Source of the DNA: Candidatus Lokiarchaeum ossiferum
GTDB lineage: Archaea; Asgardarchaeota; Lokiarchaeia; Sigyniarchaeales; Promethearchaeaceae
Length of the DNA stretch: 32,000 nt
Reading direction: 5' to 3'
Assembly: GCA_025839675.1 (NCBI GenBank)
Contig: CP104013.1
Location: 930,001-962,000, forward strand
In this document: positions 17,192-32,000 of the stretch, in pieces
Layout: each line of letters starts with the position of its first letter
How positions within the stretch are numbered: position 1 is the stretch's first letter
Made by a program: the position numbers and the translations under genes
Notes under the pieces: model-generated
What the model was told of the DNA's origin: nothing
What the model saw: the letters and a program-made list of their open reading frames with translations, nothing else
The model's database searches: none

Positions 17192-18151
17192 TTAACCCCA
17201 CAAACCTTCTTTGAGTTTAGATAATTTCTGATCCATATCCTCAAGTTCTTTCCGACCTTCTTCATCCAGTATTTTTTGCCTTGGAATTAAAGATTTCAAC
17301 GATTCTGATAATAAAGCATCATCTTTCCACATTGAAGTATGAGACCGGGCAATAAATTCATTGCGATGAAAAATCATTTCAACTAACTCTTGGGTAAGCC
17401 ATGGTTGTTTATTCTTTTCTTTGGATAGTTGCTTATAAATTACTTTCGGAGCCTTTGGCATTAAATCTGCAACTAAATCACCGTATCGTTCGAGATGTTT
17501 AACCGCGTTGTTAAAAAGGATATAATTTTCAAGTAATTTCCTATCCATCAAAAATGATACACTTTCAGATTCGAACAGTGATACTGGACTATGCAGTAAT
17601 AATCCATGAGTTACGTTCAAGATGCAATAATTATCAAAATTACCATCTTTAATAAGTTCATCATATTCACTCATTGAATAAATTAAAATCTTCTCTGCAA
17701 GTATTGGATGAACAGACGCAAATAGAGAATATAACAACTGAAATCGATCACTTTCCGGCTCATTCTCAATAAAAATTATGGGATACCGCATAAAACAACT
17801 TTCAAAGAAGTGTAAAAGATCATGTTTTGAAAAAGAATCCAAAATAAACTCAATATTTGTACGACCGAAATAATTCCGATATTTTGAGAGAGCCTTAGTT
17901 TTAATTTGCTCAATTTTCGCGGTCATCGACATAATATTATACTCAAATTGGAGATATCCTCTTACTGCCCCATTTTTATCGATATAAGAGTGAATTTTAT
18001 GTTCGCAAATGACATTTTCAGGTATCATCACTGGTGTAGTTCCAGTTGTGCTTTTTGCAAAAATATCTACAGGAACTTGAACATATTTAGATTTCCGACA
18101 CACTGGACAAATAAAAATTATATTTTTTGTTTTCGCCAATAATTTCACCAA
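17192..18151 (-). CDS. hypothetical protein with N-terminal zinc-ribbon-like motif
   Basis: 319-aa ORF with balanced composition. The N-terminus has CPVCRK...x25...CEHKIH. The central alpha/beta-like segment is LLHFFESCFMRYPIIFIENEPESDRFQLLYSLFASVHP. The only start before the zinc motif is TTG 18151 or GTG 18148. Confidence 0.7.
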   Translation of the reverse strand: MVKLLAKTKNIIFICPVCRKSKYVQVPVDIFAKSTTGTTPVMIPENVICEHKIHSYIDKNGAVRGYLQFEYNIMSMTAKIEQIKTKALSKYRNYFGRTNIEFILDSFSKHDLLHFFESCFMRYPIIFIENEPESDRFQLLYSLFASVHPILAEKILIYSMSEYDELIKDGNFDNYCILNVTHGLLLHSPVSLFESESVSFLMDRKLLENYILFNNAVKHLERYGDLVADLMPKAPKVIYKQLSKEKNKQPWLTQELVEMIFHRNEFIARSHTSMWKDDALLSESLKSLIPRQKILDEEGRKELEDMDQKLSKLKEGLWG

Positions 18152-20272: not shown

Positions 20273-20299
20273 GTGAGAAAATCAAAAAAGGTGAATAAC

Positions 20300-21106
20300 A
20301 TGGAAAACACAAAAAATATTAAAGAAAAAATTGCCAATCTTTATGCAGACCAAAGATTTGGTGTATTTGCGACAGTATGGAAGAATCAATCTCATCAAAC
20401 TCTTGTTTGTTTTCAAGTCTCAGAAGATTTATCAACCATTATCTTTGGGACCCCAAAAAATAGTCGAAAATTTGTAAATTCACGAGTGCATGAAAAAGTT
20501 TCTTTCTTTGTTGATTCAGCAAATAATGATCCAAAAGATCTGTCTCAAGCAATGACGCTTTCGGCAGTGGGTCGTGCTTTCATAGGGGATCTTTTACCAA
20601 AAGAAAAGTTGGACTCACTTATTCAACGATTTTTAAAGAAACATCCATATCTGGAAAAGTTCATAACAAGCCCTAGCACCGATTTAGTGATTATTGAAAT
20701 AGATCATTATCAAGTAGTTGAAGATTTCCAGACTGTAATTGATTGGAAACCATCCCCTAGTGAAAAACCAATCCTTTATCGCCAAATAAAAGGAAATTCT
20801 GTAGTAAAAGGACTCTTCAGAGGGAAAATTGCGACGATTGCATCGGAAAAAGATTTAGAACAGCACTTAGAGGATAATGCAATTTTCCTCCAAAATGAAG
20901 CGTTAATTGAGCAAATTATCAAATATAAATTTAAGGGAGTGATTTGTGAATCCGATGTTTCAAGTAAATTATTGGAAGAATTTTGCAGTAATCAAAAAAT
21001 CCCCTTTGTGTCTAATCTAAACAATTTGAGCCAGAGTATTGAAGATAAGGATGAAATTACTATTGATGGATATTTAGGATTAATTATCATCCACAAAATC
21101 CGATAA
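20300..21106 (+). CDS. fusion protein: PNPOx-like (FMN-binding split-barrel) domain plus degenerate PEP-utilizer 'swivel'-like domain
   Basis: The N-terminal half has a general-stress-26/PNPOx-like pattern (FGVFATV...LVCFQVSEDLSTIIFGTPKNSRKFVNSRVHEKVSFFVD...). The C-terminal roughly 110 aa (GNSVVKGLFRGKIATIAS...GVICESDVSSKLLEEFCSNQKIPFVSNL...ITIDGYLGLI) resemble the PEP-utilizer mobile domain but lack the GG-x-TSH phospho-His motif. GGTGA lies about 10 nt upstream of ATG 20300; GTG 20273 is the alternative start. Confidence 0.65.
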   Translation: MENTKNIKEKIANLYADQRFGVFATVWKNQSHQTLVCFQVSEDLSTIIFGTPKNSRKFVNSRVHEKVSFFVDSANNDPKDLSQAMTLSAVGRAFIGDLLPKEKLDSLIQRFLKKHPYLEKFITSPSTDLVIIEIDHYQVVEDFQTVIDWKPSPSEKPILYRQIKGNSVVKGLFRGKIATIASEKDLEQHLEDNAIFLQNEALIEQIIKYKFKGVICESDVSSKLLEEFCSNQKIPFVSNLNNLSQSIEDKDEITIDGYLGLIIIHKIR

Positions 21107-21225: not shown

Positions 21226-21789
21226 ATGAGCCATCAAACAAACCAAATTATCATAAATTTCACCTCTAATTTTCCTCATCTATTTGGTAACATGCAAAAA
21301 TACCTTCCGCTCATAAATCATCTGTTAAGTGAAGAAACTCAGAATAAATTTTATATTGAAACTACTTTGGATGGATTAGTTTACATATACCAAGATTTCA
21401 ATACCTTTTTCTTAATGAATAAACCCTATCCACCCGAAAAAATTAAAAAATTTACTGAAAATCATGAATTAGAACTTGATCCAAAGGTGCTTCCTAACAA
21501 TGTCATTAATCGAGACAATTTTCCTCCTAACGGGGTACATTTTCAATACAAAATCTTCGGAGAAAATAAAGAAAAAATTAGTGATATGATTTTTACTCAC
21601 TTCAAATCCTTTTTATACGATGACGTTTCAATAGTTAATAATCCAAATTATGATTTAACTTTGAAACTTCACAAATTCGAAAACATCGCTCTTTACAATC
21701 AAATGGTGTCCTCAATGTATTCGGGTATTCTGACAGAAGCAGGTCCCGAAATCACAAGAGGAGGAATTTCTAAAAAAATTAAAAATTGA
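21226..21789 (+). CDS. hypothetical protein (187 aa)
   Basis: ATG-initiated ORF with non-degenerate composition and no recognisable motif. Its 3' end overlaps the convergent uxaC 3' end by 11 nt. Confidence 0.5.
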   Translation: MSHQTNQIIINFTSNFPHLFGNMQKYLPLINHLLSEETQNKFYIETTLDGLVYIYQDFNTFFLMNKPYPPEKIKKFTENHELELDPKVLPNNVINRDNFPPNGVHFQYKIFGENKEKISDMIFTHFKSFLYDDVSIVNNPNYDLTLKLHKFENIALYNQMVSSMYSGILTEAGPEITRGGISKKIKN

Positions 21790-23185
21790 AGTAATTTTGA
21801 GCATTATAATAACAAACATCTTGAATCAATTTGCCCAACAGTTCAGGATCATAAGGAATTTCACCTTTGTCGACCCATTTTCCAATTAAGTTACAAAGAA
21901 TCCTTCGAAAGTACTCATGACGCGGATAAGAAAGAAAGCTCCGTGAATCCGTGAGCATCCCGACAAATTTTGATAATAATCCATGATTTGCTAGAGAAAT
22001 CAATTGATTTTCAATCCCTAGCTTTTGATCGTTAAACCACCAAGCACACCCCATCTGCATTTTCCCTACAACTTTACCGTCTTGAAAGCTTCCCAACATC
22101 GTAGCGATAACATCGTTATCTTTGGGATTGATGGAATATACAATGGTTTTTGGTAAAGAATTTGTTGATTCTAATGCATTTAGAAATTTGCACAAAGATA
22201 TTGCGATATTAAAATCCCCCATGGAATCATAGCCAGAATCAGGCCCTAATTCTTGGAACTTAAGTGAATTATTATTCCGTATAGCTCCAAAATGCAGCTG
22301 CATAACCCAGTTTTTTTCTGAATTCATTTTTCCAAATTCTATCATTAGACCAGTTTTCAACTGATCCTTTTGAAGAGTTGAGAGAGGAGAATGGCTTCGG
22401 ATTTGCAAAAAGGCATCTTCCAATTCATTTTTGCTAGAAAAAGTGGAATATGGATGTTCCAACCCATGATCCGAAAGCCGGCATCCGAGAGAATGAAAAA
22501 AATCATGTCGTTTACGAAGAGCACGAATATAAGTAGAAAAATCATTGATGGTTGATTTGGTAATTACTTCCAATTTGTCAACCCAGGAATTGAAATCTTC
22601 GATGTTATCAAAATTTAGAGCTTTATCTGGCCGAAATGCGGGGAAAATTTGAATTTGAAAGGTTTTATCCCTACGTAGCTTTTCATGAAATTCTAAGTTA
22701 TCTAAGGGATCATCGGTAGTACACACAATTTTAACGTTCATTCGTTCCAATAAACCACGAACACGGAAATGATCTTGTTTCAGAAGTTTTTCGGTTTGAT
22801 AATATATATCACGACCCGTTTTCTCATTGAGAATACGGTCTTTTATATTAAAATAACGCAATAGCTCCAAATGAGTCCAATGAAAAAGTGGATTACCTAA
22901 AGTCGCCGGAACCGTTTGAGCCCAAGCATAAAATTTATCGAAATCAGTACCATCTCCAGTAATCAATTTTTCAGGAATACCGTTGGCTCGCATCGCTCGC
23001 CATTTATAATGATCTCCATTGAGCCATAATTGTGTGAGATTTTGAAATTGGGTATTCTCAAAAATATCTTTAACAGAAAGATGACAATGATAATCAATAA
23101 TAGGTAAATTTTCGGCATATTCATGGTATAAAGTCTCGGCTATTGTCGAATTAAGCAAGAAATTTTGATCTAAGAATTTTTTCAT
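21779..23185 (-). CDS. uxaC: glucuronate (uronate) isomerase
   Basis: The N-terminus FLLNSTIAETLYHEYAENLPIIDYHCHLSVKDIFEN matches the hallmark UxaC motif (LYH...PIxDYHCHL). The length of 468 aa is typical, and conserved WW/HxGA-type blocks continue downstream (MQLHFGAIRNNN, GCAWWFND). Confidence 0.9.
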   Translation of the reverse strand: MKKFLDQNFLLNSTIAETLYHEYAENLPIIDYHCHLSVKDIFENTQFQNLTQLWLNGDHYKWRAMRANGIPEKLITGDGTDFDKFYAWAQTVPATLGNPLFHWTHLELLRYFNIKDRILNEKTGRDIYYQTEKLLKQDHFRVRGLLERMNVKIVCTTDDPLDNLEFHEKLRRDKTFQIQIFPAFRPDKALNFDNIEDFNSWVDKLEVITKSTINDFSTYIRALRKRHDFFHSLGCRLSDHGLEHPYSTFSSKNELEDAFLQIRSHSPLSTLQKDQLKTGLMIEFGKMNSEKNWVMQLHFGAIRNNNSLKFQELGPDSGYDSMGDFNIAISLCKFLNALESTNSLPKTIVYSINPKDNDVIATMLGSFQDGKVVGKMQMGCAWWFNDQKLGIENQLISLANHGLLSKFVGMLTDSRSFLSYPRHEYFRRILCNLIGKWVDKGEIPYDPELLGKLIQDVCYYNAQNYFNF

Positions 23186-24273
23186 TAGTTTATCACCGTT
23201 GAATTGTTTTGAATAAAAAGATCTATTTCGGATCGAGTAGGAGATTTGCCTGTCTTAACTTTTAAAGCAGCAACAATTCGGGCAAATTTTGCACATGCAA
23301 TCACATTTTTTATTAGAGTATCAAGATCAAGATGATTTAATTCTTCTTTAGAGGAAATGCGTGAATTAAACTCAACCAAAAAAGCCGCCGCAAAAGTATC
23401 CCCTGCTCCGGTTCGATTTCTTACTTTTATTGAGATAATGGGAATGTGAACAGGTTGCTTATTAGAAACACATATCCAAACACCTTTTTTTCCGAAAGTG
23501 TAGACTCGAATTTTGGCAAAATGCGAGATTTGGAGATCATTTCGGATTACTTGCTGGGAATTCATTGATATATCTGTTTGAGTTTGAGAAAATGAGCAAT
23601 CTTGTAATATAGTAGCAATATCTTGTAGATTCATAAATAGAATATCACAAGGGTGGTCATTAAGTAATTCTAACTGGGCTAAATTGTGTATTTTCTGAGT
23701 CTCAATAGTCACCGCTAGAATTTTATCATGTTTTGGAACCGCCAAATAGATTGGAGCAAATTTTGGAGCAAAAGGAGTGATGAAAACAATGTTATAGGGA
23801 TAAAATTTATGAGTTGGAAATTGAATATCGGTGAAATTCATCTCCTTTTTGCAATTCGAAGCGAGAAGAATTTTAGTTATGGATGGATCTTCAATAATTG
23901 TACTAATTGGAGTCGGCGAAGATTTAATGTAAATGTTAGAAGTGCCTATGCCTAATTCTTGAAGTTCTTGAAGCATCCATTGAGAATTTTCACCAACTAC
24001 AGACAACAAATCCACATTGGCACCCAAGTGAGCTAAAATTTCAGAGGAATTATTCCCATTCCCCCCTCTTTTTAGATAGGAATTCCCTTGAATCTTTTTA
24101 TTGGTGGAATTAACAATATGAAGGATTTTGGATTCAATTTCTTCTTCTGATATATAGGATTGTTGATTTTGAAATAAGTTTTGACTTAAAATCTTGGCCA
24201 AAGATGAATAAACATCAGCCCGATAGAAGAGATCAATATGCAATTCTCCCACTACAATGATTCGATTCTCCAT
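23185..24273 (-). CDS. PfkB-family sugar/sugar-acid kinase
   Basis: GG motif RGGNGNNSS and the C-terminal ATP/anion-hole motif NRTGAGDTFAAAF are present. The stop TAA shares one nt with the uxaC ATG (TAATG). ATG 24273 is preferred over the track's GTG 24282. Confidence 0.85.
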   Translation of the reverse strand: MENRIIVVGELHIDLFYRADVYSSLAKILSQNLFQNQQSYISEEEIESKILHIVNSTNKKIQGNSYLKRGGNGNNSSEILAHLGANVDLLSVVGENSQWMLQELQELGIGTSNIYIKSSPTPISTIIEDPSITKILLASNCKKEMNFTDIQFPTHKFYPYNIVFITPFAPKFAPIYLAVPKHDKILAVTIETQKIHNLAQLELLNDHPCDILFMNLQDIATILQDCSFSQTQTDISMNSQQVIRNDLQISHFAKIRVYTFGKKGVWICVSNKQPVHIPIISIKVRNRTGAGDTFAAAFLVEFNSRISSKEELNHLDLDTLIKNVIACAKFARIVAALKVKTGKSPTRSEIDLFIQNNSTVIN

Positions 24274-24308
24274 TAATGTCACTTAATTCAGTAGATTGGA
24301 TAAAAAAA

Positions 24309-25562
24309 TTAGAGGAGGGATAAATTACCTTCAATTGCGGCTTGAATTATCGGTCCAATTATTTCATCAACTTTTTCAATGGAAACAGGGTTTGGCATAG
24401 CTTGAAGTTTCATAGCATTTTGGGAAGCATCTTTTAATGCTTTTTGTTTATACGCAGCCTGCCAACCAGGCATTTCCGTCAATTTGGTTGGAAATCCCAT
24501 GGATTCATACCAATTCAAAATAGATGTGGCAATAGATACCCCAAGATCACCCTCAACAGGAAGATGCAACATTTGGGCAATTGGACGTAATTTTTCAGCC
24601 ACAACAGGATTTTTGGCATAATATGCCATATAATAGGGTAACATTATTCCTGTAGAATTACCGTGAGCAATTGTATCTGCCCAAGAAAACGAATTCATAT
24701 GCGGTCCCCCAGTACCTTTAAATTTCTCGCCGCCGATGACCGTTCCACCTAAAACTGATGCATAAGCCATCATTGTTCGAGCATTACTATCATTTGGATT
24801 TTCGACTGCAATTTTTAACCACTTAAAAATTAGTTCGATAGATAATAGAGCATATTCATTGATTGATTCATTTCCTGGATCTTGCACAAGATTTAGGTAT
24901 CCCTCCATACTATGAGTTAAAGCATCTAGACCGGCGGTTAAAGTTAGAGAAGCAGGACATGATTTTGTTATTTCAGGATCTATAATTGCATAATGTGGGT
25001 GAATAGCAATATCAGATATTAATTTTTTTAAGTGGAGGTTTTTGATGGTGACGTTGGAATATCGTGTTACTTCTGAAGAAGTTCCAGAAGTCGTTGGAAT
25101 ACAGATACAGGGAGAAATCCGCTCTAACTTAGGAGAAACAGCCCCAACTCCAAAATAGGGAGAAATATCTGTTTCGTTCAATCCCGTCAAAATAAGTGCA
25201 GCTTTTGCAGCATCCATTGCACTTCCTCCCCCTAACGCAATACAAACATCAAAATCATGTTGTAAATATAATTTTGCAATATCTTCCACGGTTTCTTTGG
25301 AAGGGTTTGGTTCCACACCTTCGAAAATAATTGCGCTTAAACCAGCATTATCCAAGGAAGTTAGTAAGGTATCTAAGGAACCATTTTTTTTTACGGATCC
25401 CCCTCCAATCACAATGAGAGCTTTTTTTCCAAATTCGGCAGCTCGCTTACCTACAGTTTTAAGTAAACCAGAGCCAAATTCAATTTTTGTTCGCGGCCAA
25501 TGTTCAAAGATGTCATTTGCCCTTTGAATAATTTCTAAATCTCGATCGGTTAATTCTTCCAT
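24309..25562 (-). CDS. iron-containing (group III) alcohol dehydrogenase
   Basis: Fe-ADH signatures are present: VIGGGSVKKNGS, ALGGGSAMDAAKA, a candidate metal-ligand region GLDALTHSMEGY and a His pair HMNSF...AHG. It ends 36 nt before the kinase ATG (26 nt before the alternative GTG 24282). Confidence 0.9.
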   Translation of the reverse strand: MEELTDRDLEIIQRANDIFEHWPRTKIEFGSGLLKTVGKRAAEFGKKALIVIGGGSVKKNGSLDTLLTSLDNAGLSAIIFEGVEPNPSKETVEDIAKLYLQHDFDVCIALGGGSAMDAAKAALILTGLNETDISPYFGVGAVSPKLERISPCICIPTTSGTSSEVTRYSNVTIKNLHLKKLISDIAIHPHYAIIDPEITKSCPASLTLTAGLDALTHSMEGYLNLVQDPGNESINEYALLSIELIFKWLKIAVENPNDSNARTMMAYASVLGGTVIGGEKFKGTGGPHMNSFSWADTIAHGNSTGIMLPYYMAYYAKNPVVAEKLRPIAQMLHLPVEGDLGVSIATSILNWYESMGFPTKLTEMPGWQAAYKQKALKDASQNAMKLQAMPNPVSIEKVDEIIGPIIQAAIEGNLSLL

Positions 25563-25647
25563 TTTTTCTTCATCTAAGTTAGGGTTTACTAGTTATTTTC
25601 TGTTCAATGGCTAAAAATGTATGGATGGATGTATGGAAAAAAAGAAA

Positions 25648-27702
25648 TTATTCTTCTTTCAAGAGTAAATTTGAAAGATAATCAATATCCCGTCCCCGCT
25701 GGGTACGTAAGAATTTAACACTATTTTCGGCAGTCTCATAATCGTGAATTACGTTAGAAACGGCGAGAGTCACTGCTAATGGATCATCGAATCCAGGATA
25801 CAATAAATTTCGACCAACAAGGGCACCTTTAATATTGGGCCCTGCTCCTAACCCTTTTTCAAAATTTATGATAGTATCCGTGGGATATCCGGTGGAAGCC
25901 CCTCCCAATAGCAAAATGGGGTTGCTAGTTGAGCGAGCAACTTGCTCAAAATTATCAACATAAGGTACTTTCAACCAAATTTTACTTGAAGATGACCCTC
26001 CAATTGCGGTAGCAACTCCAATTGTTTTGATTAAATCTACATAATTCAATTTTACTCGATACTTATTTTCTATACGTTCTACAGGCAAAGGTTCCACAAA
26101 AGCGGGTAAATTATACTTACCACATTCTCGAACCATATCAGCACAAGCAATAATAGTTTTTTGAGAATATCGGGCTTGACTTGATTGCAAATCTAAACGA
26201 AACATCATTTTTGCTCCATCTAAATTCATATCAAAAATTTCTTTTATTGTATATGCAGTGATCTGATCATCCATTTCATAATCGGAACCCGACAATCCAC
26301 CACGATTCGTACACCCAATTAAAATACGCCCATTCAACAGTGATTCACCACTTACTTCTGTAATCATATGATCTAGAGCAAATAAATCGTCAAATATATC
26401 TGGAGTCGCCATAATCCCATCAACTTTTGGATCAATCAATGTTCGAACAATCCGACCTAAATATTGTTGACGATCTCCCATGGCCACTTCATTATCGCCA
26501 ACAGTTGTAACAAATCGTGCAGGATGATCTGCTGCCACGATGATAATATTAGAATCCCAGGGGTAGGAACGTTTCTTTCTTTTCTTAGCATTCTCCAAAA
26601 TTTGAGTTGAATGTTTGATTTTATATTCAGTTAACCGGTAAAATAACCTTTCGGGAAGAAATTGGCGAGTTTTGAATCGGTAGGCTCCAATGGCATAATT
26701 AACCATGATATGAGCTTCAGCATTTTTCATAGCAGCAATTCCAGTATAGATCACCGATTCACTTGATTGATCACCTATAGGCATGACCTCTAGGGCTATT
26801 CCCCCTTCAAAATCAATGTCCATTAAAGCAATATAAAATTCTTTTAATACTGTTGGAGTCACCGCCCCATCCGGATGATCCATACTTAGGTGAAGATCCC
26901 CATACGCATTCTTTTCTTCTTCTGCAACACAATTTGCCACATGAACCCAATTTAGAAATGGTTTCAAAGATCTAATAGTCTCAACTGTTTCAGGATAACC
27001 GCCATCAAAAATGAGAAACATGTGTGAAACATCATAAAGAAGGCCAAATTCATCATAACCTTGATCAATTTTGATTGTTTCAGCCACAGTTCGAGCATCA
27101 GAGGAAGGACCTATAAGTTGATTTTTTGTTAAACTATGATCAATCCGGTCAAATAGTTCCAAGGTCATTTTCAGAGGTTTTTTCCCTAATTTTTTCGCAC
27201 ATTTCCTATTGTAGCGACACATTTCTTTAATTGATAGAATTAAAGCGCGGATTGCATGTTTTCGATCTTCAGTACAATTTGTAGTTTCTGGATCTTTTCC
27301 GCTTAAGAAACAAAATGCCTTGGCATCAATCTCATAGGCTTCATCAATCAAATTTCTCATTCGATCCACAGCGTTAGAACGCTCAATTTCATTGATGGAA
27401 GAAATATCAGTTGGTTCTATCAGGTGATCCTCATTAATCAATTGAACGGGTTGCGCACAAAAAGAGACATAAAAATTCTCTTTCTTGTATAATGCAGCCA
27501 TTTTCTTACGTAACATCGGATCTTTAATGGTTGTTACTTCAATTCCATTAAAATAATTTGTATTTTTTATCGAGTTAAAAGATTCCACCATAAATTTTTC
27601 GGAAGCTTCACCTAATAAGGTGGTTTTTCCATGACGTGGGCCTGGAAAAGCCATAAAATGTACAATACTTTTGATATTTTTTTCAAATGCCATTTTTTTC
27701 AT
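25648..27702 (-). CDS. two-barrel fusion protein: xylose-isomerase-like TIM barrel (N) plus DeoC/FbaB/LacD-type class-I-aldolase-like barrel (C)
   Basis: Residues about 1-350 show sugar isomerase/epimerase (AP-endonuclease-2 fold) blocks: MTLELFDR, LLYDVSHMF, WVHVANC, GIALEVMP. Residues about 385-684 show aldolase-like blocks: IIVAADHPAR, VDGIMATPD, LPAFVEPLP, KIWLKVPYV (candidate Schiff-base Lys), ILLLGGAS, GALVGRNLL. It is the first gene of the minus-strand operon. Confidence 0.85.
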   Translation of the reverse strand: MKKMAFEKNIKSIVHFMAFPGPRHGKTTLLGEASEKFMVESFNSIKNTNYFNGIEVTTIKDPMLRKKMAALYKKENFYVSFCAQPVQLINEDHLIEPTDISSINEIERSNAVDRMRNLIDEAYEIDAKAFCFLSGKDPETTNCTEDRKHAIRALILSIKEMCRYNRKCAKKLGKKPLKMTLELFDRIDHSLTKNQLIGPSSDARTVAETIKIDQGYDEFGLLYDVSHMFLIFDGGYPETVETIRSLKPFLNWVHVANCVAEEEKNAYGDLHLSMDHPDGAVTPTVLKEFYIALMDIDFEGGIALEVMPIGDQSSESVIYTGIAAMKNAEAHIMVNYAIGAYRFKTRQFLPERLFYRLTEYKIKHSTQILENAKKRKKRSYPWDSNIIIVAADHPARFVTTVGDNEVAMGDRQQYLGRIVRTLIDPKVDGIMATPDIFDDLFALDHMITEVSGESLLNGRILIGCTNRGGLSGSDYEMDDQITAYTIKEIFDMNLDGAKMMFRLDLQSSQARYSQKTIIACADMVRECGKYNLPAFVEPLPVERIENKYRVKLNYVDLIKTIGVATAIGGSSSSKIWLKVPYVDNFEQVARSTSNPILLLGGASTGYPTDTIINFEKGLGAGPNIKGALVGRNLLYPGFDDPLAVTLAVSNVIHDYETAENSVKFLRTQRGRDIDYLSNLLLKEE

Positions 27703-27947: not shown

Positions 27948-28379
27948 TTATAGAAAATAAGATGAATCAACTGGTAAACGATGAGAAATTCGATTTAACG
28001 CATCAATTGTACGAGTTAAAACAAGTAGTGCATCGGCTTTAGATAAATCTTCAGTATTCGTTGTGTGATAAAATCGTTCTAAATATTCAATTACTTCTTC
28101 CAATTGAAGATATCTATGTTTTGGATTTCTTCGATGACTTGATAGTTTTAAGGTCGTGTAAGTTTTGGGTTTCTTAGATGTTTTCTTTTTCTTGGAAACA
28201 GAATGGGAATTAAAATAAAGATATGGCCGCTCTTGTATATTTTTAATTATTTCCAAAACCGTAGTAGGATTAGAAACAACTTCGCGCAAATTTGATGCAT
28301 ATATTTCTCCCCCGTTAGTTTCTATGTATTCATATACGGAATCAATTATTTCAACCATAGATCTTTTTTTTTTTTCCAT
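27948..28379 (-). CDS. hypothetical protein, possible N-terminal winged-helix, basic linker
   Basis: ATG start. The N-terminal roughly 55 aa have a three-helix pattern (IIDSVYEYIETNGGEIYASNLREVVSNPTTVLEIIKNIQ), followed by a Lys/Arg-rich linker (SKKKKTSKKPK...HRRNPKHR). It lies directly upstream of the sugar operon on the same strand. Confidence 0.55.
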   Translation of the reverse strand: MEKKKRSMVEIIDSVYEYIETNGGEIYASNLREVVSNPTTVLEIIKNIQERPYLYFNSHSVSKKKKTSKKPKTYTTLKLSSHRRNPKHRYLQLEEVIEYLERFYHTTNTEDLSKADALLVLTRTIDALNRISHRLPVDSSYFL

Positions 28380-28454: not shown

Positions 28455-29531
28455 TTAGTGGTATGTCATATAAATGTGTTTGAAAAAGAGCCCAAACATA
28501 AATCCTACATCATATAGTGCCTTTTCTGTCAATTCGTTTAAAATAATCAAACCCGGATTCGAAGAATCAGAAAAAAGGAAATGTTGAGCATTATTTTCTA
28601 AGTATGTCGTTTGCTTTGAAAAATCAAGCGTTTTTAATTCCGATGGAATAGAATCTGTATCATAAACATCAGCGAATTCATCCCCAAAATGTTCCAGCAT
28701 GGTGTGAAATATGGGACTTAGTCGAGTAGCGGATTTTTTTCTATAGTGTTCGATTTTCTTAAATGAAAGATCCTTATTGCTCTCATAACCATCTTGGGAT
28801 CCAGATACGATTGCTTTTTTGAATGGTAAAAAACCATCCCTTAGCCGTTTCTGAGTGAAAACCTCGTGTCCACTATGGAGTGCGGAGAGAATTTTCATCA
28901 TTTTTTTTGGTTTCCCTAAATATTTAAAGATCTTCGAGTAAGGAACTGTTTTTGTGTGGAAAGGATGGCCCAAATCCGCTAAATAGTGAGTTGCGCGAGA
29001 ATTAAAACGCCAATACCAATACTTATTCCGATTTGATTTTGCACGTTCCGCTGCGGAAAGATAATACTGGAAACATTGACTAGTACATCCAAATTTTTTG
29101 CCAAACAATGAAAACTCCATATGGCGATATCCATGGCTACCTTTAGTCAATTTTTGGGACCAGTGAAGGTTCAAATCACAATCTAGATGCAAATCAGGCT
29201 CGGTACAATATAAAAACAGAATCTTCCAAGGTTCTATCTTCAGTTCTGGATTAGGTTTAGATGAGTACTTTCCATTCCGAATTTCACAATCAAAACATTC
29301 ATCAGGATTTAATTTAGTTTCAAAATGTGCAGATTTCTTATAGTAATCAATATGTTTGGGACCAATTCGCCAATCTTTAAAATTCGGATTAGGTTGTAAA
29401 GTCACTGGTTCAAGATCGTACATCCATTGATGAGGAAGTGTAGCATAATAGGTAAGATATTCATGGGTATAATACGGACCCCAAGCATCTTCGAGACGAG
29501 GATCTTCATGTAAAAGATAATCTACAACCAT
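28455..29531 (-). CDS. zinc-dependent phospholipase C / S1-P1 nuclease superfamily-like protein, no signal peptide
   Basis: HYLADLGHPFH (encoded about 28955-28990) has exactly the spacing of the family motif HYLxDxxxPxH (three Zn ligands). Upstream lie W-x5-H (WGPYYTHEY) and a His/Asp-rich block (DLHLDCDLNLHW...SHGYRHMEF). Downstream, LHSGHE has the H-x3-E spacing of the last ligand pair. Confidence 0.65.
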   Translation of the reverse strand: MVVDYLLHEDPRLEDAWGPYYTHEYLTYYATLPHQWMYDLEPVTLQPNPNFKDWRIGPKHIDYYKKSAHFETKLNPDECFDCEIRNGKYSSKPNPELKIEPWKILFLYCTEPDLHLDCDLNLHWSQKLTKGSHGYRHMEFSLFGKKFGCTSQCFQYYLSAAERAKSNRNKYWYWRFNSRATHYLADLGHPFHTKTVPYSKIFKYLGKPKKMMKILSALHSGHEVFTQKRLRDGFLPFKKAIVSGSQDGYESNKDLSFKKIEHYRKKSATRLSPIFHTMLEHFGDEFADVYDTDSIPSELKTLDFSKQTTYLENNAQHFLFSDSSNPGLIILNELTEKALYDVGFMFGLFFKHIYMTYH

Positions 29532-29780
29532 ATCAAATGGTAATAGGTATAGATACTGTATAAAGAATTTTCATTGCCTTCCCTAGGAACCTTCGTAATT
29601 TTTTCTTTTTTTCAACATTTCTGACCTTTTTTTGTGAGTATACTTAATCTTCTGGTATTTTTCCAGAGTTAATAATTTGAGATATATATGTTTTTTATTA
29701 GAACTAATATGTACGAATATTAATGATTCCTAATTTAAGATCCATTCAACTTTTATTTTTATTGAACGAAAAATTAAAAC

Positions 29781-32000
29781 ATGCTTCTACAGATCACATT
29801 TGGAAAAGTAATAATTGGCATAATGATTGGTTTTCTCTTATTACTTCTTATTCTAGGTATTATATGGTTCTTACTTCCCTATTATTTCAAATATATTCGT
29901 ATCCTAGATTATGATGGAACTTATGATCCAAAAAAAGATACGATCAAGAAACCTACGCCACTTTCAATCCAAACTACAATAGGAAAATTGCTGTTAGATA
30001 AAAAAAACTTAAGTTATTCCATAGATTTTGGAGGAAATCGGAAATTTACCAATGGAACAGTCCAAATATTTTATAAATCAAAATTATATTCATCCTATTC
30101 TTCTCAATTGGAGACTCAATTGACTTTTCGAGGGGAAAAACACCAAGAAGGCACGAATGATCTAGGCATTTTTCATAAAACCATTTGGACATGGCAAATC
30201 CCTCAAACTGAACTAACATTTCAAACACAGTTTTTAGAATTTCCAGAAAAAGATTACATTATATTCCAATTTCATGTTGAAGACTCTATTTCCAATATCA
30301 ATATCAAGCAAATGAAGCAACCCAACGTAAAATTTCCGTGTTTTAATAATGAAAGTTATAATCAACGAATATTGACATATCGAGATGCTCAATTTCATCC
30401 CGCTCAACGTGATTTTGATTTTGTTACAGCTCCAGTTATGCTTTTTGATGATGCTAAAAATGTCGTCATAATTTCGGCATTGGATCATTTCATTACTAAT
30501 GGAGTTGGAAAAAAACTCAATAACAAAAATGGAATGCAAATACAATGTGGAACCAATGGTCATGTTGCAATTATCCCTCAAAATCACACCCACCGCTACA
30601 TTGTCGTTTTTCATCAAGGAATAAACGAGAGTATGCGTTATTGGGGATCCTTATTGAGAAAATTTCATCACGCACCAAAAAAAGAGCGGTATTCTGACGT
30701 CGTGTGCAATTCATTAGGGTATTTCACCGATAATGGAGCCTATTACTATTACAATCCTATCAAAGGTAAAAAATTTGATCAAACACTTATAGAAGTCAAA
30801 AAGCATGCAGATCAAATGAAAATTCCCTATCAATATTACCAATTGGATAGCTGGTGGTATATTAAATCCCTTAAGAAATGGAAACGTGATATTCAAGGAT
30901 ATTTTGGAAAAATTTTAGGAGGGGGGTTATTTGGAGGTACAAAGGATTGGAGCCCAGATCCTTATGCATTTGATATGAGCCTTGAAGATTTGTATCAAAA
31001 ATTAGGACAAAAACCCTTTATAGCTCATAACCGATGGTTTTCGGATGATACAATATATGCTGACAAATTCAAATTTGATATCATCGAGAATCGCGCTCTT
31101 TCAATTGATCCGGACTTTTGGGACTATTTAATGGCTTATTGCAAAAAAAATCATATCGCTGTTTATGAACAAGACTGGCTTTCAACCCACATGGAAAAGA
31201 TGCCACGCCTTCATTCAGAAATTGGGTATGCAGAAAAGTGGTTGGAAAATATGGCTATGGCAGCCGAAAAGCATGGAATCGCTATCCAATATTGTATGGC
31301 CACCCCTGCAATAATCATGCAATCAATTCACAATAAAGCCATTACAAATTCCCGATCCGCTGAAGATTACAATCCTCGTTGGCCTCATAGATATGATGTT
31401 CCGCCGTTCTTTCAATCCTCAATGTTTTCTTCAGCTTTAGGTTTAAATGTCATTAAAGATACCTTCCAAACTACGAGAATATCAAAGATGGCAGGAGAAA
31501 AATACCCAGAACTGATGGTTCTCACGGGAGCTCTTGGAGGAGGACCCATCAGTCCGGGTGACGCAATCGGACATATGAATGCAGAATTAATAAATGCAAC
31601 TTGCCGTAAGGATGGATGGCTATATAAACCATCCCATCCTATGATTCCAGCAGATATCACATTTATCAAGAATTCAACTTACTTTATAGGCCATACATTC
31701 TCACAAATTGCGAATTATAAATGGATTTATAGTCTTACTGCGAATTTTTGGCCGAAACGAGTGAAAAATCCTGATTATTCATTAAAAGAGATCGGAATAG
31801 ATGGAAGATACATTGAGTATGATTGGTTTTCTAAAAAAACACGCCTAGTTGATACAACGAGCAAGTTTGAGGACAAGTTAGAAGAAGAGCAATATATATT
31901 TTCTATATATTCCCCCTTAATTAATAAATCCTTTGCGCTACTTGGAGATGTAAACAAAATCATCATGATGAATGATTGTGAGTTTCTCTCTTTTAATGCT
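29781..32000 (+). CDS. membrane-anchored glycoside-hydrolase-like protein, 3'-truncated by window edge (not in supplied ORF track)
   Basis: Manual codon-by-codon translation from ATG 29781 (in-frame TAA at 29775-29777) gives 740 sense codons with no stop up to base 32000. The N-terminal anchor is KVIIGIMIGFLLLLLILGIIWFLLPYYF. The central region has barrel-like motifs GYFTDNGAYYYY, YYQLDSWWY, AVYEQDWL and GGGPISPGDAIGH. The composition is clearly protein-like, unlike the antisense track ORFs here. Confidence 0.85.
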   Translation, partial: MLLQITFGKVIIGIMIGFLLLLLILGIIWFLLPYYFKYIRILDYDGTYDPKKDTIKKPTPLSIQTTIGKLLLDKKNLSYSIDFGGNRKFTNGTVQIFYKSKLYSSYSSQLETQLTFRGEKHQEGTNDLGIFHKTIWTWQIPQTELTFQTQFLEFPEKDYIIFQFHVEDSISNINIKQMKQPNVKFPCFNNESYNQRILTYRDAQFHPAQRDFDFVTAPVMLFDDAKNVVIISALDHFITNGVGKKLNNKNGMQIQCGTNGHVAIIPQNHTHRYIVVFHQGINESMRYWGSLLRKFHHAPKKERYSDVVCNSLGYFTDNGAYYYYNPIKGKKFDQTLIEVKKHADQMKIPYQYYQLDSWWYIKSLKKWKRDIQGYFGKILGGGLFGGTKDWSPDPYAFDMSLEDLYQKLGQKPFIAHNRWFSDDTIYADKFKFDIIENRALSIDPDFWDYLMAYCKKNHIAVYEQDWLSTHMEKMPRLHSEIGYAEKWLENMAMAAEKHGIAIQYCMATPAIIMQSIHNKAITNSRSAEDYNPRWPHRYDVPPFFQSSMFSSALGLNVIKDTFQTTRISKMAGEKYPELMVLTGALGGGPISPGDAIGHMNAELINATCRKDGWLYKPSHPMIPADITFIKNSTYFIGHTFSQIANYKWIYSLTANFWPKRVKNPDYSLKEIGIDGRYIEYDWFSKKTRLVDTTSKFEDKLEEEQYIFSIYSPLINKSFALLGDVNKIIMMNDCEFLSFNA

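Follow-up and report, generated by a model that had tools for sequence, protein, structure and literature searches.

What does a uronate isomerase do in a gene cluster that holds none of the enzymes with which it normally works? The question is raised by a 32,000-nucleotide stretch of DNA (contig CP104013.1, positions 930,001 to 962,000; hereafter the window) from Candidatus Lokiarchaeum ossiferum, which is a cultured Asgard archaeon and not only a metagenome-assembled genome. Here, four co-directional open reading frames (ORFs) on the minus strand lie head to tail and encode a fusion of a xylose-isomerase-like barrel with a class-I-aldolase-like barrel, an iron-dependent alcohol dehydrogenase (Fe-ADH), a PfkB-type kinase and the uronate isomerase UxaC. 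In Escherichia coli and Bacillus subtilis the Ashwell pathway comprises UxaC, UxuB/UxaB, UxuA/UxaA, KdgK and KdgA/Eda (reviewed in PMC6353982). Searches of the ORFs against Pfam and NCBIfam bore out both the families that a sequence-only reading had assigned to the four genes and its view that every classical partner of UxaC is missing from the window: none of its ORFs is a UxuA/UxaA dehydratase, a UxuB/UxaB-type reductase, a KdgK equivalog or Eda (no PF01081 domain), and no further member of a sugar-acid family was found in the whole 32 kb. Comparison with related archaea, set out below, provides solid evidence that something was rewired at this locus, whereas the chemistry is unproven. As judged from gene order and similarity, the cluster appears to be a clean natural example of operon-level non-orthologous replacement, in which four downstream functions were swapped but the first enzyme was retained, along with its translational coupling.

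The UxaC locus and its relatives

UxaC, the last gene of the cluster (21779–23185, minus strand, 468 amino acids), matches the Pfam family of that name with 688 bits and the NCBIfam glucuronate-isomerase equivalog NF002794 with 611 bits (cut-off 387), and it is 100% identical to the L. ossiferum database entry 'Uronate isomerase'. Its equivalog score, together with 82% identity to the copy of a sister species (contig L090; L numbers designate the loci compared), shows a gene that is intact and under constraint. In two other Promethearchaeota, L093 and L095, the corresponding protein (69% and 61% identical, respectively) ends a canonical Ashwell operon. Because the isomerase is orthologous to the UxaC of such operons, its substrate is more likely glucuronate or galacturonate than 5-deoxyglucuronate, which the sequence-only reading had entertained. 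A third context of UxaC in Promethearchaeota was seen in L094 (881–4964), where a 62% identical copy stands alone beside a glycoside hydrolase family 4 (GH4) glycosidase and a GFO/IDH/MocA oxidoreductase, followed by NADH-dependent ferredoxin/hydrogenase-like subunits.

The canonical operons of L093 and L095 share the order Eda (PF01081), KdgK-like PfkB, short-chain dehydrogenase/reductase (SDR), UxuA and UxaC, and the flanks of L093 can be followed into the window on both sides. The gene directly before Eda in L093 corresponds to window positions 28470–29513 (71% identical), within a conserved upstream boundary gene (28455–29531, minus strand, 358 amino acids) whose function is not assigned, and the gene beyond it corresponds to 30234–32000 (72%). 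On the other side, the 184-residue gene that follows UxaC in L093 matches window positions 21226–21750 (70%), part of a convergent gene of 187 codons (21226–21789, plus strand) that overlaps the 3' end of UxaC; the same gene follows UxaC in L090. Further downstream, another L093 gene matches 17195–18118 (72%), and the more distant L093 neighbors identified by Pfam (PadR, 2TM, a 753-residue major facilitator superfamily protein and a 1247-residue SNF2 helicase) have window ORFs of equal size as counterparts. With the convergent gene on one side and the syntenic flanks around it, the cluster does not run on into canonical genes outside the window, the case that the sequence-only reading had named as one that would overturn its proposal.

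Three proteins of L093, Eda, KdgK-like and UxuA, were compared with the window by tblastn, and none has a counterpart there. Decay of the canonical operon in L093 was considered and rejected: the gap in its SDR gene (L093:8309–8561) is a run of 100 N in the assembled sequence, and the last 163 residues of the protein match the SDR of L095 with 83% identity. Since both the 61% and the 69% UxaC relatives sit in canonical operons, the Lokiarchaeum state is probably derived; and since L093 is in addition syntenic on both flanks, the arrangement is best described as an in-place replacement. We infer from these alignments that the block Eda-KdgK-SDR-UxuA was probably exchanged for a block consisting of a small ORF of 143 codons followed by the fusion, Fe-ADH and PfkB genes, and that the stop/start overlap onto UxaC was recreated.

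The spacing within the cluster is largely as the sequence-only reading had given it. The fusion gene (25648–27702) probably starts at ATG 27693, which gives a protein of 681 residues, because its homologues all begin MAFE or MALE. It is separated from the Fe-ADH gene (24309–25562, minus strand, 417 amino acids) by 85 nucleotides (25563–25647) that open with a run of T, TAA-TTTCTTTTTTT (read directly). The kinase gene (23185–24282, minus strand) may start at GTG 24282 (365 amino acids) or at ATG 24273 (362 amino acids, the NCBI annotation), which leaves a spacer of 26 or 35 nucleotides after Fe-ADH; the 26 nucleotides had been given correctly, and the 36 nucleotides of the alternative are to be corrected to 35. 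Its stop codon overlaps the start of UxaC by one nucleotide, in the TAATG at 23185, also as previously read. A second run, of seven T, follows the Fe-ADH stop codon (24302–24308). Oligo-T tracts are termination signals in archaea, and in view of the run in the 85-nucleotide spacer the fusion may be partly transcribed on its own.

The arrangement is shared with the sister species. On L090, the end of the fusion is followed by Fe-ADH, PfkB and UxaC in the same order, with similar spacing, the same one-nucleotide overlap and matching downstream genes; identities to the window are 90% for the fusion, 90% for Fe-ADH, 77% for the kinase and 82% for UxaC. Upstream of the fusion lies an ORF of 143 codons (27948–28379, minus strand) that matches no Pfam family and is absent at the corresponding position in L093. 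A 157-residue gene beside the paired aminotransferase and fusion genes of L086/L087 is 50% identical to it (E = 9e-41), and the equivalent in L153 is 35% identical. Given where its homologue sits, the small ORF seems to have traveled along with the fusion, leaving the aminotransferase behind.

The kinase, the reductase and the fused barrels

What, then, are the genes that took the place of the Ashwell enzymes? The kinase matches Pfam PfkB with 78 bits, GG (GGNGNN) and GAGD motifs can be read in its translation, and its best matches in the PDB are ribokinases (E = 6e-7). It reaches no NCBIfam equivalog (54 bits on ribokinase, 42 on IolC_N and 17.6 on 2-keto-3-deoxygluconate (KDG) kinase, whose cut-off is 400). 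An assignment as IolC was rejected, as the match to TIGR04382 (42 bits against a cut-off of 300) covers residues 253–304 only. Its family, PfkB kinases of about 355 residues, is found across the Asgard archaea, and the members elsewhere stand alone (L091, L092). An Arf/Gtr1-RagA-type GTPase adjoins the free-standing homologue in L092.

By several comparisons, the kinase evolves faster than any other gene of the cluster. It is only 43–45% identical to its nearest relatives outside the genus, which are 58–65% identical to one another; the 77% that it shares with L090 compares with 90% for each of its two upstream neighbors; and with respect to another L. ossiferum assembly it differs at 18 of 362 residues (5.0%), against 5 of 681 (0.7%) for the fusion (the two proteins are 95% and 99% identical, respectively, to L. 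ossiferum database entries). A recent paralogue was considered, and no second L. ossiferum protein appears among the best 120 family matches; by these sequence comparisons, a fast-evolving orthologue is more likely.

The alcohol dehydrogenase matches Pfam Fe-ADH (156 bits) and ADH_Fe_C (71 bits), with TM0920 (1O2D) as its best PDB match (E = 6e-42). It reaches no NCBIfam equivalog, and the nearest models, all far below their cut-offs, are the GbsB type (185 bits), 4-hydroxybutyrate dehydrogenase (169 bits) and the lactaldehyde reductase FucO (160 bits). On this basis it is a candidate aldehyde (semialdehyde) reductase.

The C-terminal half of the fusion (25648–26646, minus strand; approximately residues 353–684 plus the stop codon) is a class-I-aldolase-like barrel of the Cgl0159 family (PF22649, 223.7 bits against a cut-off of 27). 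It matches the uncharacterized structure 3FOK over residues 353–653 (E = 6e-51) and MJ0400 at E = 0.003. The sequence-only reading was right that this half is not Eda; with no PF01081 match, it is a DhnA/LacD-type class I barrel with only weak similarity to FbaB/MJ0400. Nor does either enzyme group with KdgK or with 2-keto-3-deoxy-6-phosphogluconate (KDPG) aldolase, the grouping that the same reading named as the mark of a standard Ashwell pathway.

Residues K498, E537 and K578 reproduce the Lys/Glu/Lys pattern of DeoC/LacD-type Schiff-base aldolases, at intervals of 39 and 41 residues, with K578 (codon 25969–25971) as the putative Schiff-base lysine. We take this spacing to resemble that of LacD (compare PMC9007349). 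Within each context group of an alignment of 138 homologous C-domains, at least 90% of the sequences agree at the same 34 residues, which include D392, H393, K498, E537, K578, G600-G601, G630-R631 and seven arginines; the two glycine/arginine motifs are common to MJ0400. Nowhere does one context group conserve one residue and another group a different one, and because the same 34 residues are conserved throughout, the aldolase half of the fusion shares its catalytic core with the IolC-linked and phosphofructokinase (PFK)-linked enzymes. As read from the alignment, this core fits an enzyme that would yield dihydroxyacetone phosphate (DHAP) by cleaving a ketose phosphate bearing another anionic group. 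In a simple neighbor-joining tree, the fusions form one clade, sister to the PFK-linked sequences and separate from the IolC-linked clades.

To which pathways does the Cgl0159 family belong elsewhere? The contexts surveyed comprise 80 genome loci and 57 metagenome loci, plus contexts with supplied gene calls (in some bacterial loci the genes were called with a heuristic based on GC content by codon position, checked against supplied calls). Across them, Cgl0159-type proteins nearly always adjoin a sugar kinase, the family of which varies. In Curtobacterium (L074), the gene has IolC (358 bits, cut-off 300) on one side and, on the other, IolA (675 bits, cut-off 448), IolD (831 bits, cut-off 715) and an IolE-like gene in succession; by analogy, it sits exactly where the 5-dehydro-2-deoxyphosphogluconate (DKGP) aldolase IolJ is needed. 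Dozens of soil contigs pair Cgl0159 with an IolC-like kinase, often together with IolB. The resemblance to the lower half of inositol catabolism to which the sequence-only reading had pointed therefore has real comparative support in the aldolase, which occupies the IolJ position in actinobacterial clusters, although it does not extend to the kinase, which is not IolC, or to the N-terminal barrel, which lacks a specific IolE signal. Another class-I-aldolase-like domain, DUF2090, which is fused to IolC, has been proposed by Price et al. as the common DKGP aldolase (PMC9007349); our literature searches found no paper on the function of Cgl0159 or 3FOK.

Partnerships with PFK-family kinases occur in Chloroflexota, Bacteroidota, Lokiarchaeon LC30 and others (the one member scored, in L030, matches the pyrophosphate (PPi)-dependent PFK subfamily model with 503 bits against a cut-off of 273), and in NC10 the gene is found with an FGGY kinase, an SDR and a zinc-dependent alcohol dehydrogenase. 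In Mesoaciditoga (L012:9223–16528), DeoR, the fusion, a PCC-domain protein, a TRAP transporter (DctPQM) and a kinase of the ADP-dependent PFK/glucokinase (ADP-PFK/GK) family stand together. This kinase represents a fifth superfamily partnered with the Cgl0159 family, and the TRAP type points to a carboxylate substrate. In L103 (6995–13694), Cgl0159, PFK, an unfused N-domain, a transketolase subunit and a membrane pyrophosphatase form a row beside RecG, RsmD and CoaD. The core of Cgl0159, PFK and N-domain recurs in L100–L102 and L151, with the aldolase and PFK 72% identical to the L030 type. The L103 array looks like central carbon metabolism, possibly a PPi-dependent module for fructose-1,6-bisphosphate (FBP) and sedoheptulose-1,7-bisphosphate (SBP), rather than a catabolic island.

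The N-terminal half of the fusion (26668–27702, minus strand; approximately residues 1–345) is predicted to be a divergent xylose-isomerase-like TIM barrel of the metal-dependent isomerase/epimerase type. It matches Pfam AP_endonuc_2 (PF01261) with 37.6 bits against a cut-off of 31.1, and its AlphaFold2 model (predicted local distance difference test score 88.5) shows alternating strands and helices. Foldseek returned the Art22 isomerase, ketose 3-epimerases, UlaE and L-rhamnose isomerase from the PDB with a probability of 1.0 at 12–17% identity; neither this search nor a profile search against the PDB discriminated a function, since the many epimerases and isomerases recovered are vague in this respect. 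By hhalign, the domain aligns with an ordinary AP_endonuc_2 protein at 95% probability, including the ligand positions E182, D224, H227, H254, D269/H271 and E305. The Glu-Asp-His-Glu set of metal ligands, E182 (conserved in at least 90%), D224, H254 and E305 (all three invariant), aligns with MJ1311 and with an ordinary family member. A UxuA-like dehydratase was considered and rejected, the hhalign probability against UxuA being only 3.8%; nor did the domain match a model for IolE or IolI.

A separate gene for the N-domain is found beside Cgl0159 and a PFK-family kinase in L023 (Anaerolineae, with a 2-hydroxyacid dehydrogenase), L100–L103 and L151, which makes the link between this domain and the aldolase old and robust. 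Of the NCBIfam models, only that of the keto-uronate epimerase IolO matches an unfused homologue, and weakly. Two roles fit these observations: an epimerase or isomerase that delivers a stereoisomer cleavable by the aldolase, or a Hyi-like isomerase that acts on the aldehyde product. The latter would account for the kind of enzyme that neighbors the fusion, a hydroxypyruvate-reductase-like dehydrogenase or an aminotransferase, both of which use 2-oxo acids.

The fusion itself is by no means specific to this cluster but an Asgard-wide gene that usually stands free, beside an aminotransferase. We detected 166 homologues in Promethearchaeota/Lokiarchaeia, Sigyn- and Hodarchaeota, Bacillota, Mesoaciditogaceae, Gemmatales and others. 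In two Lokiarchaeia (L004, L088) the gene stands alone; in others (L006, L086/L087, L089, L153), in Clostridia (L008, L010, L011) and in L015 and L019, it adjoins an aminotransferase like the class I/II aspartate aminotransferases, a companion that was searched for in the window and not found there. The pairing across domains of life hints that the product of the fusion is a 2-oxo acid. In Bacillota (L001/L009), the fusion is accompanied by an IolB equivalog, DeoR, a 2-hydroxyacid dehydrogenase resembling glyoxylate/hydroxypyruvate reductase (423 bits, cut-off 455) and an FGGY kinase. KduI and IolB form one Pfam family (KduI/IolB), and E. coli KduI is reported to help convert hexuronates (PMC3578941).

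A possible route for keto-uronates and its rivals

How could these enzymes degrade a uronate? We propose, tentatively and with a confidence a little short of even, that the four genes form a catabolic cluster specific to the genus Lokiarchaeum that would take a uronate through a keto-uronate and its 1-phosphate to DHAP and tartronate semialdehyde, and on to glycerate. The family assignments are the observed part of this scheme, and its chemistry is inferred at each step. First, UxaC, a uronate isomerase of bacterial type, would turn D-glucuronate or D-galacturonate into D-fructuronate or D-tagaturonate. The PfkB kinase would then phosphorylate the CH2OH group beside the keto group (C1 of the keto-uronate, equal to C6 of a 5-keto-hexonate and the position used by IolC). 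In the third step, the C-domain would split the 1-phosphate through a Schiff base on K578 into DHAP and tartronate semialdehyde, which Fe-ADH would finally reduce to glycerate. The substrate of the third step would be an analogue of FBP in which a carboxylate replaces the 6-phosphate, and likewise the 2-hydroxy analogue of DKGP; by our own structural reasoning, fructuronate 1-phosphate would have the same 3S,4R configuration as DKGP. The N-domain could epimerize or isomerize the keto-uronate (or its phosphate) for the aldolase, or interconvert tartronate semialdehyde and hydroxypyruvate as Hyi does. The expected balance would be two pyruvate and one net ATP per uronate, redox-neutral, and since this equals the yield of the Ashwell route, the swap would cost nothing.

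In support of the keto-uronate route, the set of isomerase, kinase, aldolase and Fe-ADH matches, by analogy, the pattern of FucI-FucK-FucA-FucO, and the nearer models of the Fe-ADH include lactaldehyde and semialdehyde reductases. The in-place replacement, the conservation in L090, the IolJ slot of the Cgl0159 family, its unchanged core and the non-orthologous enzyme sets around the fusion elsewhere (L001/L009, L012) point in the same direction, as does a recurrence in bacteria. The bacterial cases are five Syntrophaceae-like contigs (L030 and the metagenome contigs L096, L097, L098 and L105) on which Cgl0159 is followed by a PFK-family kinase and then by UxaC; where the contigs reach far enough, a TRAP organic-acid transporter stands before and a cupin gene after the three genes. 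By tblastn the bacterial UxaC is only 28% identical to that of the window, yet it matches the glucuronate-isomerase equivalog with 582 bits (cut-off 387). Ahead of the cluster in L097 and L098 lie Eda, KdgK-like, KduI and KduD-like genes, and neither contig shows UxuAB or UxaAB. As the aldolases belong to different clades and the kinases to different superfamilies, this is a second, convergent assembly of UxaC, kinase and Cgl0159.

Several observations weigh against a dedicated uronate pathway. The 85-nucleotide spacer with its T-run sets the fusion apart from the other three genes, and the L. ossiferum fusion is not unusually divergent. Conservation in the sister species says little, as it extends to the flanking genes. 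Most Lokiarchaeia retain both the fusion and the kinase family, but at separate loci with no UxaC nearby, so their ancestral job was not specific to uronates. The contexts of L100–L103 and L151, of which only L103 is annotated, imply that the family may include ordinary FBP/SBP aldolases and that the UxaC adjacency in L030 could be incidental. Finally, the absence of canonical genes applies to the 32-kb window, and uxu, uxa and kdg genes could lie elsewhere in the 6-Mb genome.

The strongest rival builds on these points. It holds that there is a mere juxtaposition, in which fusion and kinase are ordinary Asgard enzymes for another sugar phosphate, UxaC is a relic of a lost Ashwell operon beside which a rearrangement placed them, and Fe-ADH is unrelated; the two could even be an FBP-type aldolase and a phosphofructokinase-like kinase. 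The fusion and the kinase family are indeed near-universal and free-standing in Lokiarchaeia, T-runs follow the stop codons of both the fusion and Fe-ADH, and the small upstream ORF moved along with the fusion, as a block transfer predicts. Beyond the genus Lokiarchaeum, moreover, Cgl0159 meets UxaC only in the bacterial L030 group, while in L103 it lies with PFK among transketolase, pyrophosphatase and housekeeping genes, in a core common to L100–L102 and L151. A relic, on the other hand, would hardly be the intact and constrained gene described above. The overlap between the kinase stop and the UxaC start, kept in L090, suggests co-translation, four functions (aldolase, kinase, reductase and TIM-barrel enzyme) replaced four at exactly the same locus, and UxaC, kinase and Cgl0159 came together convergently in bacteria with unrelated kinases. 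We consider juxtaposition rather unlikely, though it deserves to be taken seriously.

Could the new enzymes instead carry out the old pathway? In such a non-orthologous Ashwell route, Fe-ADH would reduce fructuronate or tagaturonate to mannonate or altronate, the N-terminal barrel would dehydrate these to KDG and the PfkB kinase would make KDPG, which the C-domain would cleave to pyruvate and glyceraldehyde-3-phosphate. The enzyme classes map one-to-one onto the replaced Eda-KdgK-SDR-UxuA at the syntenic locus, UxuA is itself a xylose-isomerase-like barrel (a faint AP_endonuc_2 match is seen on the UxuA of L093), and the neighbors of the fusion elsewhere, a 2-hydroxyacid dehydrogenase and an aminotransferase, would also fit a pyruvate product. 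However, the N-domain aligns with AP_endonuc_2 proteins of the isomerase/epimerase type and not with UxuA (the 3.8% given above), the kinase has only its 17.6 bits on KDG-kinase models, and the C-domain keeps the residues of IolC- and PFK-linked homologues, whose contexts call for a DHAP-forming cleavage. In L097 and L098, Cgl0159 and PFK coexist with genuine KdgK and Eda, so they are no substitutes for these enzymes there. To our knowledge, the Cgl0159 family contains no pyruvate-forming aldolase, and we regard this alternative as improbable.

Least likely of all, by a small step further, is the variant favored by the sequence-only reading, a lower inositol-type pathway in which UxaC would stand in for IolB on 5-deoxy-glucuronate and the kinase for IolC, the C-domain would be the DKGP aldolase that yields DHAP and malonate semialdehyde, the latter would be reduced by Fe-ADH to 3-hydroxypropionate, and the N-domain would be IolE/IolI-like: the IolJ position of Cgl0159 in iol clusters, the IolB equivalog beside the fusion in Bacillota, the weak IolC_N match of the kinase (42 bits) and the frequency of AP_endonuc_2 proteins in iol operons speak for it, but the kinase falls far below the IolC cut-off, the N-domain matches neither the IolE nor the IolI model, IolG, IolD and IolE are absent from the window, as is any KduI/IolB-family protein (UxaC occupies the place of that role), and UxaC is orthologous to the enzyme of the relatives' canonical hexuronate operons.

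Surrounding genes and comparison with known systems

Three further features of the window deserve mention. At 1541–2446 it encodes a 301-residue protein with a small GTPase domain of the Arf/Roc/Ras type; such GTPases are among the eukaryote-like signature proteins typical of Asgard archaea. At 20273–21106, a protein of 277 residues joins a weak match to PNPOx/F420-type flavin-binding proteins in its N-terminal half with a weak match to the C-terminal domain of pyruvate kinase, an unusual pairing. Next to the upstream boundary gene, about 700 nucleotides (29532–30233) have stops in all six frames where L093 carries a 215-residue ribbon-helix-helix gene; the segment may be what is left of a regulator gene, or else a non-coding element.

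How would the keto-uronate route relate to what has been described? The review of hexuronate metabolism lists isomerase and oxidative routes in bacteria and one eukaryotic route, and never mentions tartronate (PMC6353982); a variant in L. suebicus makes a fourth described arrangement. None of the described routes phosphorylates the keto-uronate. Full-text literature searches found no keto-uronate kinase/aldolase route with tartronate semialdehyde, nothing on uronate metabolism in L. ossiferum and nothing usable on the glycolytic enzymes of Lokiarchaeota. A broader formulation, which we hold with slightly less assurance than the route in Lokiarchaeum itself, is that this would be a fourth prokaryotic hexuronate route, a 'uronate-EMP' (for Embden–Meyerhof–Parnas), in which fructuronate, as a mimic of fructose-6-phosphate, is phosphorylated at C1 and cleaved by a Cgl0159 aldolase; an Asgard archaeon would have swapped a horizontally acquired Ashwell operon in place for its own kinase and aldolase, and Syntrophaceae-like bacteria would have arrived at the same solution by convergence. 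If true, glucuronate and galacturonate would be catabolized in a new way, and a first function would be assigned to Cgl0159 (PF22649), which is widespread and structurally solved, and to a fusion conserved across Lokiarchaeia, Hodarchaeia and Sigynarchaeia. One of the very few Asgard archaea in culture would, moreover, offer a carbohydrate pathway that can be assayed.

With the Ashwell pathway, the Lokiarchaeum cluster shares the first enzyme (a UxaC orthologue), the chromosomal position found in relatives and the expected redox-neutral yield of two pyruvate and one ATP. It differs in having no UxuB, UxaB or SDR reductase, no UxuA or UxaA, no KdgK and no Eda, and in an aldolase of the DHAP type (DhnA/LacD-like) that would not form pyruvate. 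The lower myo-inositol pathway offers the same logic of aldose-ketose isomerization of a uronate-like acid, phosphorylation beside the keto group and DHAP-forming cleavage, and its actinobacterial version has in the IolJ position an aldolase of the same family with the same conserved residues. Here, however, UxaC replaces IolB, the kinase is other than IolC, the CoA-acylating IolA gives way to an Fe-ADH, the expected product is tartronate rather than malonate semialdehyde owing to the 2-hydroxyl, and the window holds no genes of the upper pathway.

If the keto-uronate route is right, tartronate semialdehyde would be an intermediate shared with the Gcl-Hyi-GlxR and GarL-GarR systems of E. coli, in which a reductase likewise leads to glycerate and Hyi is a xylose-isomerase-like barrel like the N-domain. 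The reductase is a beta-hydroxyacid dehydrogenase there and an Fe-ADH here, and the N-domain is likened to Hyi by its fold only. The succession of isomerase, kinase, DHAP-forming aldolase and reductase, finally, is that of fucose/rhamnose degradation (FucI-FucK-FucA-FucO) and of the sulfo-EMP pathway (YihS-YihV-YihT-YihU). These pathways employ other protein families except for PfkB and Fe-ADH, and in the Lokiarchaeum cluster the aldolase is fused to an isomerase-like barrel and the substrate would be a carboxylate sugar; yet the fucose reductase is an Fe-ADH, as here, and the sulfo-EMP kinase is of the PfkB type and acts on a substrate with an anionic group at C6.

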